The notes under the pieces: model-generated
The model's database searches: none
What the model saw: only the letters and a program-made list of their open reading frames with translations
What the model was told of the DNA's origin: nothing
From: Escherichia coli
GTDB taxonomy: Bacteria; Pseudomonadota; Gammaproteobacteria; Enterobacterales; Enterobacteriaceae
DNA: 64,000 nucleotides
Reading direction: 5' to 3' (one strand)
Assembly (NCBI RefSeq): GCF_050920415.1
Contig: NZ_CP169309.1
Translations under genes and position numbers: made by a program
Shown here: positions 30,420 through 37,112 of the stretch, one piece after another
Position numbering within the stretch: the stretch's first letter is position 1
Layout: every line of letters begins with the position of its first letter

Positions 30420-31363
30420 GCAATCCCCCTGTCTGCAAACTTCCCTTCCCGTACTCCCGTTAACGAATCTTCCCTCAACAGGTAATCAAAATCAGCTGTC
30501 CAGCCCGTGTCGTTGTCTCCGAAGTAAAACGGCTTGGCCTGATGCACAAACGCCCTGACATACGCTCTGAAACCGTCCACGTTTGGCGTTTTCAGCTGCG
30601 GGATGATTTTCTTCAGGCGGCGTTTTCGTTTCTCGTTGACCGCAACAGCGTGTGGAAGTCTGTCACCGACTTCGGTGTTGTAGGCGTTCAGGAAGGATTC
30701 GTAGTCGATTCGTTCTGCCTTGCGACGTTCAGGTTTAACCTGCCCATCGCCTCCCCCATTGGGGGGTAGGGGGGTATTATTTATATTCTTGTTAATACCT
30801 TCTTGTTCATGATGTGCGGTTGTTTGTGCGGCTTCATGTGCGCTTTCATGTGCGGCATGTACGCTGAAAGCCGCACCATTACTGGCTTCATCATGTGCGG
30901 AATCATGTGCGGTTGTTTGTGCGGCTTCATGTGCGGGTGAATTGTCCATTTTTTGAGCGTATTCATGGTAATTTGTGATGGTGATCACACGACCTTTTTG
31001 CTTCTCTCCATCAATGGTGATCATCCCCTCTTTCACAAAAACCTGAAGCATCCGCTCAACCTGATCACGGCTTGCCGGCTTGCCATGCCTGTCGCATAAC
31101 TGAAGACCTAAATCAGCTGCTGTCACAACCAGTTGACCGGGTTGCAGATGCCATTCATGACCTTTGAAATTCGCTTTGTATGGCTTTCTGGCGGCATTCA
31201 GGAGAAGGTTTTCCCACAGGGTGCGAAGATAAACATCTTTCGCCCATGACTGTTTCAGAATGCTCCGGTACAACGGAATGTAACCAGTTTTCTGGTTCTC
31301 CATCCTGTTGCTCCTGCGCTCGTGTGCGGCGCTGAAATCGTAGATTTTTGCTGTATTGCTCAT
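30416..31363 (-). CDS. replication initiator (lambda O / P22 gene 18-like) with internal origin
   Basis: 315-aa ORF; central His/Ala-rich repeats encoded by iteron DNA; sits immediately upstream of helicase. Confidence 0.7.
30805..30940. repeat. origin-like iteron array (about 8 copies of a TGTGCGG-core ~12-bp unit; 31-bp direct repeat at 30811 and 30904) with adjacent AT-rich tract
   Basis: Repeated tcatgtgcgg / tgtttgtgcgg units inside the initiator gene; AT-rich segment 30770-30805. Confidence 0.65.
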
Positions 31364-31660: not shown

Positions 31661-31954
31661 TTAAAATTCCATTTGTATTTGATCAGAACGCTCGGTTGCC
31701 GCCGGGCGTTTTTTATTGGTGAGAATCGAAGCAACTTGTCGTGCCAATCGAGCCATGTCGTCGTCAACGACGCCCCATTCAAGAACAGCAAGCAGCATTG
31801 AGAACTTTGGAATCCAATCCCTCTTCCACCTGCTGATCTGCGACTTATCAACTCCCACAGCTTCCGCTGTCTTCTCAGTTCCAAGCATTGCGATTTTGTT
31901 AAGCAACGCACTCTCGATTCTTAGAGCCTCGTTGCGTTTGTTTGCACGAACCAT
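31661..31954 (-). CDS. cII: transcriptional activator CII (lambda-type)
   Basis: ORF 31661..32041; from MVRANKRNEALRIESALLNKIAMLGTEKTAEAVGVDKSQISRWKRDWIPKFSMLLAVLEWGVVDDDMARLARQV... matches lambda CII. Confidence 0.9.
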   Translation of the reverse strand: MVRANKRNEALRIESALLNKIAMLGTEKTAEAVGVDKSQISRWKRDWIPKFSMLLAVLEWGVVDDDMARLARQVASILTNKKRPAATERSDQIQMEF

Positions 31955-32012
31955 ATGTAAGTATTTCCTTAACAAATAAGAAGTTATGCGCATCAACTTA
32001 TGCGCGTTGTAT

Positions 32013-32056
32013 TCCCGCATTTCGGCGGGAATGAGGACCATGACTGTTAAAGAGCG
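32013..32056 (-). promoter_or_regulatory. nutR (boxA CGCTCTTTAACA + boxB hairpin TCCCGCCGAAATGCGGGA)
   Basis: Read on minus strand just downstream of cro; boxB identical to the nutL copy. Confidence 0.7.
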
Positions 32057-32063
32057 GTGTTAC

Positions 32064-32288
32064 TTATGCTGCCTGATTCGGTTTTGGAAACAGGTGTGGC
32101 AAATCGGGGCGAATTTCGTAAGCCTTGATCTGCCCTCCAGTGGCGTTAACGATGGCGGTAACTTTCTCTGGAGAGACCAATCCGCCTTTCAGCCATTTGT
32201 GTACTGCTGGCTGCGTTACACCACACTTGTCGGCAAGGCGCTTTTGGCTACCGACAATTTTCAAGGCTCGTTGAATTACTAAATTCAT
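32064..32288 (-). CDS. Cro-like HTH repressor
   Basis: ORF 32064..32309; MNLVIQRALKIVGSQKRLADKCGVTQPAVHKWLKGG...; divergent from repressor gene; start chosen by SD spacing. Confidence 0.7.
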   Translation of the reverse strand: MNLVIQRALKIVGSQKRLADKCGVTQPAVHKWLKGGLVSPEKVTAIVNATGGQIKAYEIRPDLPHLFPKPNQAA

Positions 32289-32312
32289 GAGCATACCTCT
32301 TGTGGTCATTGA

Positions 32313-32390
32313 TTATAACCAAAGATAACTCAAGTTATAAAAAATAGCAATAACCTTTGTTATTTTACTTTGGATAACCGTAGTTATAGA
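32313..32390. promoter_or_regulatory. OR operator cluster with pR/pRM: three 14-bp palindromes ATAAC-N4-GTTAT
   Basis: ataactcaagttat (32325-32338), ataacctttgttat (32350-32363), ataaccgtagttat (32374-32387); putative pR -35 TTGCTA / -10 TATCTT on minus strand. Confidence 0.65.
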
Positions 32391-32399
32391 TTTGTGGGT

Positions 32400-33107
32400 A
32401 TGAAAACATTCGCAGAAAGACTAAATGCAGCCATGAGCTTAGCTGGGGTATCACAATCACAGCTTGCAGACATGGTTGGAATATCTCAGCCAGCCATACA
32501 GAAGATGTCGTCCGGTAAAACAAACGGATCTCGCAAGATGGTTGAATTAGCCAATGCTTTAAAAGTGCGCCCTGAATGGCTTAGTTCTGGTATTGGTGAA
32601 ATGAGGGATGGTGCACATGAAGAACCATCCAATGTCCGTGAGTCATCTTTAAAAGCTGTGGTATGGGAAGACATTAAAAGAAACGATGACGAGTTTGTTG
32701 CGTTGCCTCTTCTTAACGTTTCGCTTTCAGCTGGAAGCGGTAGCTGCGAGCTAGAGGAATCATCGGAGTTCTCTTTGGTTTTCAGAAAGCACTATCTGAA
32801 AAAGATGGGAGTATCTGAAAGATCAGCCAAGCTAGTTAGGGTTGTAGGGCAAAGCATGGAACCTACGCTTCACGATGGCGATGTTGTTGGTGTTAACACG
32901 CAAGATACCACAATCAGAGATGGTAAAACCTACGCTATTTGCCAGTCTGATTTGTTACGAGTAAAAACATTAATCGCCACCCCTACATCGGTGATAATCA
33001 GATCAATAAATCGCGAAGAGTACCCGGATGAAGTAATGGATAGAGATGAATTTCATGAAACCGTAAGGATTATTGGCAGAGTATTCTGGTCGTCTCATAG
33101 TTGGTAA
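32400..33107 (+). CDS. CI-type prophage repressor (N-terminal HTH, C-terminal LexA/S24 autocleavage domain)
   Basis: ORF 32370..33107; MKTFAERLNAAMSLAGVSQSQLADMVGISQPAIQKM... and C-terminal GQSMEPTLHDGDVVGV motif. Confidence 0.85.
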   Translation: MKTFAERLNAAMSLAGVSQSQLADMVGISQPAIQKMSSGKTNGSRKMVELANALKVRPEWLSSGIGEMRDGAHEEPSNVRESSLKAVVWEDIKRNDDEFVALPLLNVSLSAGSGSCELEESSEFSLVFRKHYLKKMGVSERSAKLVRVVGQSMEPTLHDGDVVGVNTQDTTIRDGKTYAICQSDLLRVKTLIATPTSVIIRSINREEYPDEVMDRDEFHETVRIIGRVFWSSHSW

Positions 33108-33147
33108 CCGATAATCAGAAGAAGACTTACGGAAGTGCGGAGGGATA

Positions 33148-33444
33148 ATGGAATTTCTGATAGTTTTTGTTGTTGTTTTGGTCATCATTCTTTTTGTTTT
33201 GCTAAGCATTAGCAAAAAGCTATCTCAAATGATTGAACATAGCTCTAATCGCGCAAAAGAAGAAGAGCATCTAATTGATATAAAAGAGATTCTCTCTGAT
33301 ATAAAAATCACATTAGATGAAATAAAATACACAACAGATCTAATTGAACAGTATAAAATACCAACCCCAAACGAGAGAAAATCAATAGATCAATATCGTA
33401 TTGACTTAGAAATCGACGAAATGCTAAGCAACAGAAAGGACTAA
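33148..33444 (+). CDS. 98-aa single-pass membrane protein co-transcribed with repressor (candidate superinfection-exclusion/abortive-infection moron)
   Basis: SD GGAGGG then ATG 33148, 40 nt after cI stop; MEFLIVFVVVLVIILFVLLSISKK... TM helix then charged helical tail; very AT-rich; terminator follows. Confidence 0.6.
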   Translation: MEFLIVFVVVLVIILFVLLSISKKLSQMIEHSSNRAKEEEHLIDIKEILSDIKITLDEIKYTTDLIEQYKIPTPNERKSIDQYRIDLEIDEMLSNRKD

Positions 33445-33447
33445 AAA

Positions 33448-33474
33448 CACCCGGCCTCAGCGCCGGGTTTTTCT
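33448..33474 (+). terminator. rho-independent terminator after the cI-linked moron
   Basis: Stem CCCGGC/GCCGGG with 5-nt loop followed by TTTTTCTTTC. Confidence 0.65.
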
Positions 33475-33597
33475 TTCCCTGCCGTTCACCATCCAATCAA
33501 CCATCCTCATCATAGACAAGCATCAAGCCAAAGGTAACACCTTCACCCAGCACGCAAGCCCTCAAACACCAATCAATCAGCAACATTTACAAAAATA

Positions 33598-33690
33598 AAA
33601 TACCTTTGTTATCCATCACTTATAACTTATTTACCACAAAATATAAATTAGGTTATTGACCACACCTATAACCTAAGTTATCTTTAAGCC
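33598..33690. promoter_or_regulatory. OL operators and pL promoter (-35 TTGACC 33656-33661, -10 TATCTT 33679-33684)
   Basis: Operator palindrome ataacctaagttat (33668-33681) overlapping spacer and -10; second half-matching site atacctttgttat near 33600. Confidence 0.6.
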
Positions 33691-33728
33691 ATCAGCAGGA
33701 AGCTGGTAGCCAAACGGAACAGATTGGC

Positions 33729-33769
33729 AGGCTCTTTAACATTGATGGGATTGTCCCGCCGAAATGCGG
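33729..33769 (+). promoter_or_regulatory. nutL (boxA GCTCTTTAACA + boxB hairpin TCCCGCCGAAATGCGGGA)
   Basis: Between pL and N start; same boxA/boxB as nutR. Confidence 0.7.
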
Positions 33770-33878
33770 GAACCAAAGAGTAGTTGGCTTTGGGGTGACG
33801 TGAAGTGCAGCTGCACGACGGCAACCGGAAGATAAGCACCCGGCGCGTCACCGCCAAAGTCAATCATCGGAGGTCAAC

Positions 33879-34184
33879 ATGGCAGTAGTCATTACATATC
33901 TGGCTGACGATAACGCCAGAAATCGCCGCAGAGCACGCAGGCAGGCTCAACGTGAACAGGCAATGCAAGAACAGCGACTGGCGCGAAAGATTGCGCTAAA
34001 GCTCTCTGGTTGCGTCAGAGCAGATAAAGCAGCATCACTCGGAAGCCTTCGCTGCAAGAAGGTAGAAGAAGTCGAGCGTAAACAGAACCGTATTTACTAC
34101 CGAAAGCCACGGAGTGAAATGGGTGTGACATGCTCAGGCCGCCAGAAGCAACGCGGAAAATCAATTCCAGCTTATTACGATTGA
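33879..34184 (+). CDS. N: antitermination protein N (arginine-rich motif; phage 21 N-like)
   Basis: 101-aa ORF; NARNRRRARRQAQREQ arginine-rich N-terminus; LARKIALKLSGCVRADKAASLGSLRCKK...EVERKQNRIYY resembles phage 21 N as recalled. Confidence 0.7.
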   Translation: MAVVITYLADDNARNRRRARRQAQREQAMQEQRLARKIALKLSGCVRADKAASLGSLRCKKVEEVERKQNRIYYRKPRSEMGVTCSGRQKQRGKSIPAYYD

Positions 34185-34794: not shown

Positions 34795-34932
34795 GATGGA
34801 GGATATATGAGTGAAGTAACAGATTTAGTTGTTATTGAAAAAGCAAATGCAATGACTGTATTTCAGTCTGCCGACCAGATTGAAGAAATCTGAACCGCCC
34901 CGGGTTTCCTGGAGAGTGTTTTATCTGTGAAC

Positions 34933-35820
34933 TCAGGCTGCCAGATCATTGTTTCCGATGGAAGCATAATAAGCTTTTTCTGCTTCTGCCGGAGGAGTAT
35001 GGCCCAGCCTTCCCAGCAATCGTCGATTGTTATACCAGTCCACCCACGTGAGTGTGGCCAGTTCCACTTCTGCACGGTTTTTCCAGCTCTTACGGTGTAT
35101 TACCTCCGCTTTGTAAAGACCATTGATGCTCTCAGCCATCGCGTTGTCATACGAGTCGCCTGTACTCCCTGTTGATGCCAGCAGTTTTGCTTCTTTTAGT
35201 CGCTCCGTATAGGCCAGTGACACATACTGAGAGCCTTTATCGCTGTGATGGATGGTGCCAGACGGACGACGGGCCCACAACGCCTGCTCCAGCGCATCCA
35301 GCACGAATGTCGTTTCCATAGACGATGAGACCCGCCACCCCACGATGTATCCGGCAAACACATCAATGATGAACGCCACATAGACGAAGCCCTGCCATGT
35401 GCTGACGTAAGTAAAATCAGCCACCCACAGCTGGTCAGGACGTTCTGCCACGAACTGACGGTTTACGCGGTCACCTGTGGCAACGGTTTTCCGGCTGACG
35501 GTAGTGCGGACCTTTTTACCCCGGAGAACACCGGCAAGTCCCATAACCGCCATGAGGCGCGCCACTGTACATCTGGCCACCCTGATTCCTTCCCGTAACA
35601 ACTGACGCCAGACTTTACGCACACCGTACACCTGATGATTTTCATCGTATACGCGCTGTATCTCTCTCTTCAGCCAGTCATCGCGCTGCGCACGGGCACT
35701 GCGTTTATCAGGATGATGCCGCTGCTGCTGACAATGGTAATACGTTGACGGGGCGATATGCAGTTCACTGCATACCGGTCCGACCCCGTACTGCTCACGC
35801 AGCTTATCCAGCAGTGGCAT
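34933..35820 (-). CDS. IS3-family transposase OrfB (DDE integrase domain)
   Basis: 295-aa ORF with DDE-type catalytic region; overlaps orfA end as expected for programmed -1 frameshift fusion. Confidence 0.85.
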   Translation of the reverse strand: MPLLDKLREQYGVGPVCSELHIAPSTYYHCQQQRHHPDKRSARAQRDDWLKREIQRVYDENHQVYGVRKVWRQLLREGIRVARCTVARLMAVMGLAGVLRGKKVRTTVSRKTVATGDRVNRQFVAERPDQLWVADFTYVSTWQGFVYVAFIIDVFAGYIVGWRVSSSMETTFVLDALEQALWARRPSGTIHHSDKGSQYVSLAYTERLKEAKLLASTGSTGDSYDNAMAESINGLYKAEVIHRKSWKNRAEVELATLTWVDWYNNRRLLGRLGHTPPAEAEKAYYASIGNNDLAA

Positions 35821-36146
35821 TATTTTTTCCAGAGGCGGTCGAACTCCGCCTTCGCAAAATAAGCGGAAGCCTGGCGAAGGATATCGTTACTGCGGCGCAG
35901 TTCACGATTTTCACGTTCCAGCTCTTTCAGACGCTGACGTTCAGCGGTGGTGAGCCCACCATCACCGCTCCCGGTATCCCTCTCATGCTGGCGAACCCAG
36001 ACACGCAGAGTCTCTGGCGTACAGCCAATCTTTGGAGCAATGGAACAAATTGCCGCCCATTGTGAGTCATATTCGCCCTGACTTTCCAGAACCATACGAA
36101 CTGCGCGTTGACGGACTTCGGGGGAAAAACGAGTATTTTTAGTCAT
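35820..36146 (-). CDS. IS3-family transposase OrfA (HTH)
   Basis: 108-aa [60 protein letters not shown]... Confidence 0.85.
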
Positions 36147-37112
36147 CCTGTTTACCTCTTTCTCAGGAAGTTTAGTCTCCAGGATTTCCGGGGCGGTTCA
36201 ATCCTTCAAAAGGTTGAACGTGAAGTTATGTCCTTTGTGCCTGATATCACAACGGCAAAGGGCAGAAAGGAGATCGCTTCTCTGGCGTATAAAGTTGCGC
36301 AGACGAAAACATATCTCGATGGTCTTGGCAAAGACCTTGTTGCTGAACTGAAGGAAATTCCAAAGCTAATTGATGCCAACCGCAAGACAGTGCGCGATCG
36401 CCTTGATGAGCTGAAAGCCAAGGCACGCCAGCCTCTTACTGATTATGAGGAAGAACAGGCGCGGATTAAAGCCGAAGAAGAAGCTAAGGCAGCAGCTGAA
36501 GCTCTCGCAAAGCAAATTGAGTCTGACCATGAAATAGCGATTTTGATGGATCGCGAATTTGACCGCCAAAGAGAAGAGGCAAGACTCAAAGCTGAGCAGG
36601 AAAAGCGAGAGCATGAAGAACGCTTAAAAAGAGAAGCTGAAGAGAAAGCAAGAGCAGAAGCCGAAGCAAAGGCAAAAGCCGAAATTGAAGCAGCCGCAAG
36701 GCGAGAAGCAGAAGCTAAGGCCGCAGCGGAACGTGCAGAGCGTGAACGCATTGAGGCCGAGCAACGAGCACAGCGCGAAGCAAAAGAGGCAGCAGAACGA
36801 GCTGAAAGAGAAAAGCAGGCAGCAATTGAAGCAGAACGCAGAAAAGCACAGGAGGAGGCTGAACGAATCCGTCGCGAGGCTGAAGCAAAAGAGCAAGCCA
36901 GAATCGCAGAAGAAAAAAGAATCAAGGACGAAGAAGAGCACAGAGCAAAGGATAAAGCTCACCGGAAAGAAGTAAATAACAAAATACTTGCTGACCTTAT
37001 CAAGGTTGGCGCATCAGAAGATGTTGCTAAAAATATCATAACAGCCATCGTAAAAGGCGAAGTATTCGCAACAAAAATAACCTACTAATAAAACCAACAT
37101 AAGGAACCACCC

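Follow-up and report, generated by a model that had tools for sequence, protein, structure and literature searches.

Organization of the Region

The DNA analyzed here is a stretch of 64,000 nucleotides (nt) of Escherichia coli contig NZ_CP169309.1 (assembly GCF_050920415.1), called the window in what follows, and the subject of this work is the control region that surrounds the repressor gene cI and its neighbor cro. An initial annotation, made from the sequence without database searches, had seen in this region a matched pair of nut sites, nutL and nutR, flanking cI and cro, together with operators of an immunity type that it could not recognize. Open reading frames and family matches give the order cII <- nutR <- cro <- PR/OR/PRM -> cI -> orf98 -> tIMM -> OL/PL -> nutL -> N (PR, PRM and PL being promoters, OR and OL operators and tIMM a terminator), which is the map of the early region of phage lambda with the orientation reversed, and P22-like virion genes are present in the surrounding prophage (roughly 5–42 kilobases (kb) of the window). 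The region is very probably the immunity and early-control module of a P22-like lambdoid E. coli prophage, made up of a CI/Cro switch and two N/nut sites. All the features by which a lambda-type N/nut system and a CI/Cro switch can be recognized in a sequence were found in it, and those that define the lambda, 434 and H-19B specificities were not. The evidence consists of sequences, positions, enrichment, homologies and conservation across phages, and it portrays a control region that is real but ordinary, all of its parts occurring near-unchanged in public phage records.

The repressor gene cI (32400..33107, plus strand) encodes 235 amino acids (aa) with matches to the Pfam families HTH_3 (E = 1.8e-6) and Peptidase_S24 (E = 2e-17) and to PHROG 4. 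The N-terminal domain of the protein matches structures of the 434 repressor (1per, 2r63, 1r69) with E ~1e-7, and a search among solved structures turned up the repressor and Cro of 434 but not the repressor of lambda; the presumed cleavage site Ala111-Gly112 and the Ser152/Lys189 dyad of the LexA/S24 self-cleaving domain are invariant in an alignment of five homologues. The gene cro (32064..32288, minus strand, 74 aa) matches PHROG 35 (E = 9e-27), and the closest solved relatives of its product are the Cro proteins 3bd1, 5w8y and 2a63. In NCBIfam, no model was found for N or cII, and CI and Cro gave sub-threshold matches only.

The nut Sites and the N Antiterminator

The 18-nt boxB sequence TCCCGCCGAAATGCGGGA occurs twice in the window, and a search that tolerates two mismatches adds no further copy; shuffled sequences lead to an expectation of 0.03. 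The nutL copy, TCCCGC-CGAAAT-GCGGGA, lies on the plus strand at 33754..33771 and is identical in phages HK620 and mEpX2 and in a prophage of E. coli strain H19; the nutR copy, which is exact, lies on the minus strand at 32013..32030. The initial annotation had located the minus-strand copy correctly, and its plus-strand copy, at 33752–33769, was 2 nt off. RNA folding, which it had suggested as a check, gives a hairpin with a stem of 6 base pairs (bp) and a 6-nt loop (−9.7 kcal/mol, z = −2.9), whose stem grows to 8 bp when folded in the nutR context; within the loop, a canonical GAAA tetraloop is flanked by a C/U mismatch.

Each boxB is preceded by a boxA, as had been noted from the sequence. 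At nutL this is GGCTCTTTAACA (33730..33741, plus strand), which contains an exact CTCTTTAACA at 33732–33741 and lies within the stretch that HK620 annotates as nutL, and at nutR it is CGCTCTTTAACA (32045..32056, minus strand), with an exact CTCTTTAACA at 32045–32054; the spacers between boxA and boxB measure 12 nt at nutL and 14 nt at nutR. Taken alone and with one mismatch allowed, the 10-mer CTCTTTAACA is not enriched in the window (7 found, 3.1 expected), and it is the pairing of boxA with boxB, not the 10-mer by itself, that is meaningful. The boxA (C/GGCTCTTTAACA) is of the consensus type common to P22, phi21 and rrn, not lambda's shorter CGCTCTTA, and its earlier description as P22-type is thus borne out. 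The nutL boxA and its upstream context are those of the nutL sites of phi21 (lambda imm21) and HK620, the PL leader being near-identical to that of phi21. An Rfam scan of the whole window returned no RNA family at the nut sites, its sole match being an IS3-type ALIL pseudoknot.

The closest match to the nut sites in a named phage is provided by HK620 (AF335538), in which boxA, spacer and boxB of both sites are base-for-base those of the window and are annotated in the GenBank record as putative nutL and nutR. HK620 also has the same gene order, cI and OL being likewise separated by a small gene and tIMM, and a terminator tR1 annotated directly after nutR, the place at which the window has a candidate tR1 hairpin, GCGCAUAAGUUGAUGCGC (31988..32005, minus strand), predicted in the nutR fold and putatively a terminator. 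Nevertheless, the cI, cro and operators of HK620 are different ones, and the immunity module of the window has no DNA match there; HK620 also has a P22 c1-type cII, whereas that of the window is lambda-type, and the C-terminus of its N is P22/H-19B-like whereas that of the window is phi21/lambda-like.

The antiterminator gene N (33879..34184, plus strand, 101 aa) matches PHROG 271, “anti-termination protein N-like,” with E = 3e-36, and its product carries an arginine-rich motif, NARNRRRARRQAQREQ, at residues 12–27. Over its whole length the protein is 97% identical to N of phage HF4s; it is also ~95% identical to HK620 N over residues 1–64, the arginine-rich motif included, and 87% identical to phi21 N over residues 37–97, while residues 61–98 align with residues 73–109 of lambda N in PDB 6gov (E = 2e-6), the end that binds RNA polymerase. 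N therefore reads as a mosaic, with residues 1–64 of HK620 type, residues 37–97 also phi21-like and a lambda-N-like C-terminus. Phi21, so similar in its PL leader, boxA and the rest of N, differs entirely in the arginine-rich motif and in boxB, which in phi21 is TCTCAACCTAACCGTTGAGA and CACCTCTAACCGGGTG.

The nut sites of lambda, P22, phi21, PA28 and SH2026Stx1 were also read out for comparison, and in the ten phages compared, which represent four types, the arginine-rich motif of N and the type of boxB change together without exception. Where N has the HK620-type motif (the window, HK620, mEpX2, the strain H19 prophage, Stx1a_10051), boxB is of the TCCCGCCGAAATGCGGGA type; lambda imm21 and PA28 pair a phi21 motif with a phi21 boxB, P22 and SH2026Stx1 pair a P22 motif with a P22 boxB, and lambda has a motif and boxB of its own. 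In its N/boxB group the window thus stands with HK620, mEpX2, HF4s and others.

Both nut sites lie in the sense strand of an early transcript, one after PL and the other after cro, and neither boxB copy is followed by a U-tract, which argues against either hairpin being a terminator. Because of this, of their position in both early transcripts and of the co-variation of motif and boxB, binding by N is the best reading of the two hairpins. Alternatively, the 18-nt hairpins might act not as N-binding RNA but as DNA, forming an inverted repeat for exchange or inversion of the cassette, or as intrinsic terminators: the copies are indeed inverted, 1.7 kb apart and near mosaic junctions, and the nutR boxA is the point from which PA28 and SH2026Stx1 are homologous. 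However, the missing U-tracts, the fixed short distance of each hairpin from a boxA in the sense strand and the fact that hairpin type across phages follows the arginine-rich motif of N, and not the immunity module, all speak against such roles, which we regard as extremely unlikely; moreover, a conserved boxA and leader could well serve as a recombination junction and still function as part of a nut site. The view that a matched nutL/nutR pair brackets cI and cro is supported by the boxA–boxB positions, by the HK620 annotation and by the way in which boxB tracks the N motif.

A further long hairpin is found in the N leader at ~33784–33866, between nutL and the ribosome-binding site of N. It is kept in phi21, PA28, SH2026Stx1 and mEpX2, with 7 of its 26 predicted pairs still pairing despite changes on both sides, and recalls the hairpin at which RNase III processes the N leader of lambda.

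Operators and Promoters of the CI/Cro Switch

The palindrome ATAACNNNNGTTAT (ATAAC-N4-GTTAT) has four exact matches in the window against 0.07 expected, a number reached in none of 100 shuffles; three of them, at 32325, 32350 and 32374, lie in the gap between cro and cI, and the fourth, at 33668, lies at PL. Weaker copies are found in OL at 33643 (one mismatch) and 33599 (two mismatches). This enrichment beyond chance confirms the 14-bp palindromes of the initial annotation, three in OR and at least one in OL, where we count two to three.

In OR, whose sites are given here without a strand, OR1 (ATAACTCAAGTTAT, 32325..32338) overlaps the spacer and −10 element of PR, a position kept in PA28, SH2026Stx1 and HK639; OR2 (ATAACCTTTGTTAT, 32350..32363), 25 bp from OR1, adjoins the −35 elements of both PR and PRM, and OR3 (ATAACCGTAGTTAT, 32374..32387), 24 bp from OR2, overlaps the −10 element of PRM. 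On the other side of cI, two good sites and a decayed one overlap PL (again without a strand): OL1 (ATAACCTAAGTTAT, 33668..33681) covers the PL spacer and −10 element, OL2 (ATAAATTAGGTTAT, one mismatch, 33643..33656) lies 25 bp from OL1 and adjoins the PL −35 element, and a degenerate OL3 region (33599..33635) consists of the two-mismatch site at 33599–33612 and a half-site ATAAC at 33622–33626. A better third site, 20–21 bp from OL2, is preserved in HK639 and PA28, and the window retains its left half only.

The promoters were assigned from alignments across phages and a consensus scan. The predicted PL (TTGACC-17-TATCTT, 33656..33684, plus strand) comes from the promoter scan and is kept in PA28, SH2026Stx1 and HK639, the last of which has a putative pL annotated at the equivalent place. 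The putative PR, TTGCTA (32350–32345)-17-TATCTT (32327–32322), at 32322..32350 on the minus strand, is based on alignment; its elements are conserved as TTGCTC-17-TATTTT in PA28 and as TGGACA-17-TATCTT in HK639, and its layout mirrors that of PL. A higher-scoring PR candidate in the consensus scan, TTTATA-18-TATAAT, is not conserved in PA28 or HK639 and was set aside. The putative PRM (TTTACT-17-TAGATT, 32364..32392, plus strand) starts one base after OR2, its TTTACT and −10 element being kept in PA28 and HK639, and transcripts from it are predicted to start at or next to the cI ATG at 32400 and so to be leaderless, as in lambda and P22. The geometry of operators and promoters would in this way parallel that of lambda.

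Immunity Specificity and Its Distribution

The immunity cassette has close relatives in named phages and genomes. The DNA from nutR through cro, OR, cI, orf98, OL and nutL into N is 98.7% identical to the Stx1a-converting phage Stx1a_10051 (LC744178), with identical operators, and the same holds for the P22-like prophage of strain H19; the best matches among complete E. coli genomes reach 99.4%. In both Stx1a_10051, whose record is unannotated here, and the strain H19 prophage the homology ends at ~31952, beyond which the cII is another one, and the C-terminus of N also differs. The part from cro to cI is 94% identical in SH2026Stx1 and 79% in PA28 and a set of Stx1a phages, and about 100 of 5426 complete E. 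coli genomes hold at least 80% of the 2-kb immunity region. In a large protein collection the exact CI protein is present on 67 contigs and its 90%-identity cluster on more than 1000, the members of which are named in public records only as “XRE family/helix-turn-helix regulator.”

The operators have been kept even where the repressor has diverged. PA28, SH2026Stx1 and HK639 (NC_016158) all have ATAAC-N4-GTTAT sites, three in OR with spacings of 25 and 24 bp, and two or three in OL with a spacing of 25 bp and then 20–21 bp, so that operator number, spacing and place relative to the −35 and −10 elements are retained, although CI of PA28 is 85% and that of HK639 only 45% identical in amino acids overall. 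HK639, which has three sites in OL as in OR and whose PL and PR layouts match those of the window, shares near-identical CI residues 1–69 and an 84% identical Cro with it, the C-terminal domain of its CI being unrelated in sequence; it differs further in having no N/nut system, with put-like antiterminator RNAs in its place. Cro is identical in the window, Stx1a_10051 and SH2026Stx1. By its DNA-binding domain, Cro and operators, the window would belong to one operator-specificity group with HK639, PA28, SH2026Stx1 and Stx1a_10051.

When IMG/VR was scanned for a tandem pair of operators, at least 120 contigs matched; of the 120 listed, 93 encode the same CI DNA-binding domain with an identity of 60% or higher, and the C-terminal domains that follow it are of at least three kinds. 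Roughly one in four of the contigs listed show a weak match (30–50% identity) or none to this domain, and they may represent either other helix-turn-helix families reading a similar site or chance.

These comparisons bear directly on the initial annotation's proposal that the immunity type is unrecognized, which it would have given up if the repressor and operators matched a catalogued type. It had suggested comparing the repressor with known immunity groups and searching sequenced lambdoid phages for the operator motif. The motif is found in PA28, SH2026Stx1, HK639 and Stx1a_10051, and the repressor matches the CI proteins of the same phages, in HK639 by its DNA-binding domain. A genuinely new, uncatalogued specificity would agree with the fact that the region is not of lambda, 434, P22, phi21 or H-19B type, that the literature searched holds no paper on the operator and that public records name the proteins only generically. 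On the other hand, sequenced phages and about 100 complete E. coli genomes carry the module with 94–99% identity, and the same operators and DNA-binding domain are present in the published phage HK639 and on at least 93 IMG/VR contigs, which makes such novelty very unlikely. At the sequence level it is refuted, since named phages of known sequence contain matching repressor, Cro and operators: the operator specificity appears real, conserved and common, and the claim of a new type survives only in the weak sense of one “not yet characterised biochemically.”

The companion claim, that the region is not of lambda type, is correct. Neither the 17-bp TATCACCGCCAGTGGTA-type operators nor the DNA-binding domain of lambda CI was found, the operators being 14-bp ATAAC-N4-GTTAT palindromes, and the region is not of 434, P22, phi21 or H-19B type either. 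Phage 434 is related, with a homologous DNA-binding domain and an operator that is likewise a 14-bp palindrome with A first and AA at positions 3–4. The 434 repressor contacts its operator through Gln28, Gln29 and Gln33. In CI of the window the residue aligned with Gln28 is again Gln, whereas Gln29 is replaced by Pro and Gln33 by Lys, and the half-site reads ATAAC against ACAA(G/T) in 434; among the window operators no match to the 434 operator ACAA-N6-TTGT was found, all six reading ATAA(C/A). Because of the different half-site, the replaced contact residues and the absence of ACAA-N6-TTGT, the immunity specificity differs from that of 434. By analogy with the 434 contacts, keeping Gln28 and changing Gln29 and Gln33 would fit a half-site that keeps A1, A3 and A4, differs at position 2 and adds C5.

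The presence of strain H19 among the best complete-genome matches raises the question of whether the N/nut and immunity system is that of the Stx1 phage H-19B, and hence experimentally well studied. The HK620 record does call its N “similar to H19B and 21 N,” and the N/nutR system of H-19B serves in biochemical work. Yet the H-19B record (AF034975) contains an unrelated N, cI and cro, no copy of the boxB and no ATAAC-N4-GTTAT site, the only shared stretch being a downstream segment of 630 bp, and the strain H19 match is a P22-like prophage without stx (Shiga toxin) genes annotated between the antiterminator gene and the lysis genes. An identity with H-19B, suspected at first from the strain H19 match, was ruled out by this direct comparison, and its probability is practically nil. 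The P22-like prophage of strain H19 (NZ_AP027165.1, 3.16–3.19 Mb) has the same immunity region and nut sites as the window and an IS600 in the nin region, with no annotated stx genes; strain H19 is the classical source of H-19B, for which this prophage is easily mistaken.

Operator specificity and N/boxB type are combined in different ways among these phages. The immunity cassette occurs with an HK620-type boxB/N in the window and Stx1a_10051, with a phi21-type boxB/N in PA28, with a P22-type boxB/N in SH2026Stx1 and with put RNAs instead of N in HK639, and the DNA homology to PA28 and SH2026Stx1 extends from the nutR boxA (query positions 146–149) to the cI stop codon. This is the classical pattern of lambdoid modules joined at conserved linker sequences, that is, textbook mosaicism. 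Another mosaic junction is seen just left of nutR/tR1, at cII, the strain H19 prophage and Stx1a_10051 losing their homology exactly at its start.

Proposed Working of the Module

What follows on binding, activation, cleavage and antitermination is drawn from the lambda, 434 and P22 paradigms. CI and Cro would bind the ATAAC-N4-GTTAT palindromes. CI would shut off PR from OR1/OR2 and PL from OL1/OL2; at OR2, which adjoins the weak PRM −35 element, it would probably activate its own and probably leaderless transcript, and occupation of OR3, over the PRM −10 element, would lead to autorepression of PRM. Induction of the prophage would follow from RecA-stimulated cleavage of CI between Ala111 and Gly112. 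Transcripts started at PL and PR would each carry a nut site consisting of boxA, a 12–14-nt spacer and the boxB hairpin UCCCGC-CGAAAU-GCGGGA, of which boxB would be bound by the arginine-rich N-terminus of N (DDNARNRRRARRQAQREQ) and boxA by NusB/NusE, while the lambda/phi21-like C-terminal part of N would keep RNA polymerase termination-resistant. Transcription would then run on beyond tR1 into cII and the replication genes, and leftward into the recombination genes.

Some points weigh against this account of the module. All copies of boxB are identical, so that no base-pair covariation backs the hairpin; the assignment of PR follows conservation and not the best consensus score; and, since OL3 has decayed, the lambda-style looping between OL and OR by a CI octamer may not apply. 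All binding steps are argued by analogy. In the literature searched, which was thin in subscription journals, we found neither a paper describing an ATAAC-N4-GTTAT operator nor an experiment on the repressor, its operators, the N protein or an HK620-type boxB, an absence that is weak evidence, and the operator is unannotated in the phage records inspected.

Neighboring Genes and Elements

Between cI and OL lies orf98 (33148..33444, plus strand), which encodes a small membrane-type protein matching PHROG 18389 (E = 1e-61, function unknown), 98 aa long with an N-terminal hydrophobic helix. Its position is that of rexAB in lambda and of hkaS in HK620, and for this reason it is likely a lysogen-expressed accessory or exclusion gene. 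It is followed by a tIMM-like intrinsic terminator (33449..33468, plus strand), a 7-pair stem and then TTTTCTTT, at the place equivalent to the annotated tIMM of HK620, which would end the cI-orf98 transcript. The next 130 nt (33469–33598) contain 35% C and 8% G on the cI-sense strand, against regional values of 21% and 22%; this stretch is rut-like and could be a Rho-dependent backstop that stops PRM transcripts before they reach PL, nutL and N.

On the other flank, cII (31661..31954, minus strand) encodes a protein 98% identical to lambda CII, and a PRE CII-binding site, TTGCGTTTGTTTGC, at 31932–31945 is the lambda PRE site. An oop-like terminator, GCCGCCGGGCGTTTTTTATT, is found at 31685–31712 on the strand opposite cII. 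Within the O-like replication gene, direct repeats of ~12 nt (CATGTGCGG...) cluster at 30806–30948; they are probably origin iterons and translate as His/Ala/Gln-rich protein repeats.

Beyond N, an IS3-family insertion sequence of 1310 bp occupies 34891–36200, with terminal inverted repeats of 25 nt (TGAACCGCCCCGGG...), orfA at 35820–36146 and orfB at 34933–35820, both on the minus strand, and the ALIL frameshift pseudoknot mentioned above (Rfam RF01497, 122 bits). The element, which we take to resemble IS629, appears to split a coiled-coil/TolA-like early-left gene, of which an N-terminal piece remains at ~34807–34893 and a C-terminal piece ends at 37088.

Significance

As a discovery the region carries little weight, being a standard lambdoid control module. 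It does, however, illustrate modular exchange cleanly: a single immunity cassette is found with three N/boxB systems, and a single DNA-binding domain is joined to several C-terminal domains. A gap also comes to light, in that some Shiga-toxin phages are induced under the control of this operator specificity, which has apparently never been footprinted. There is about an even chance that both specificities, the HK620-type N motif with its boxB and the 434-like domain reading ATAAC-N4-GTTAT, are classes not yet studied by experiment. If so, the HK620-type N/boxB pair would represent a further mode of RNA-peptide recognition beside those of lambda, P22, phi21 and H-19B, and the two together would provide ready-made orthogonal parts, as well as a natural experiment that shows a single DNA-binding domain at work with various oligomerization and cleavage domains.

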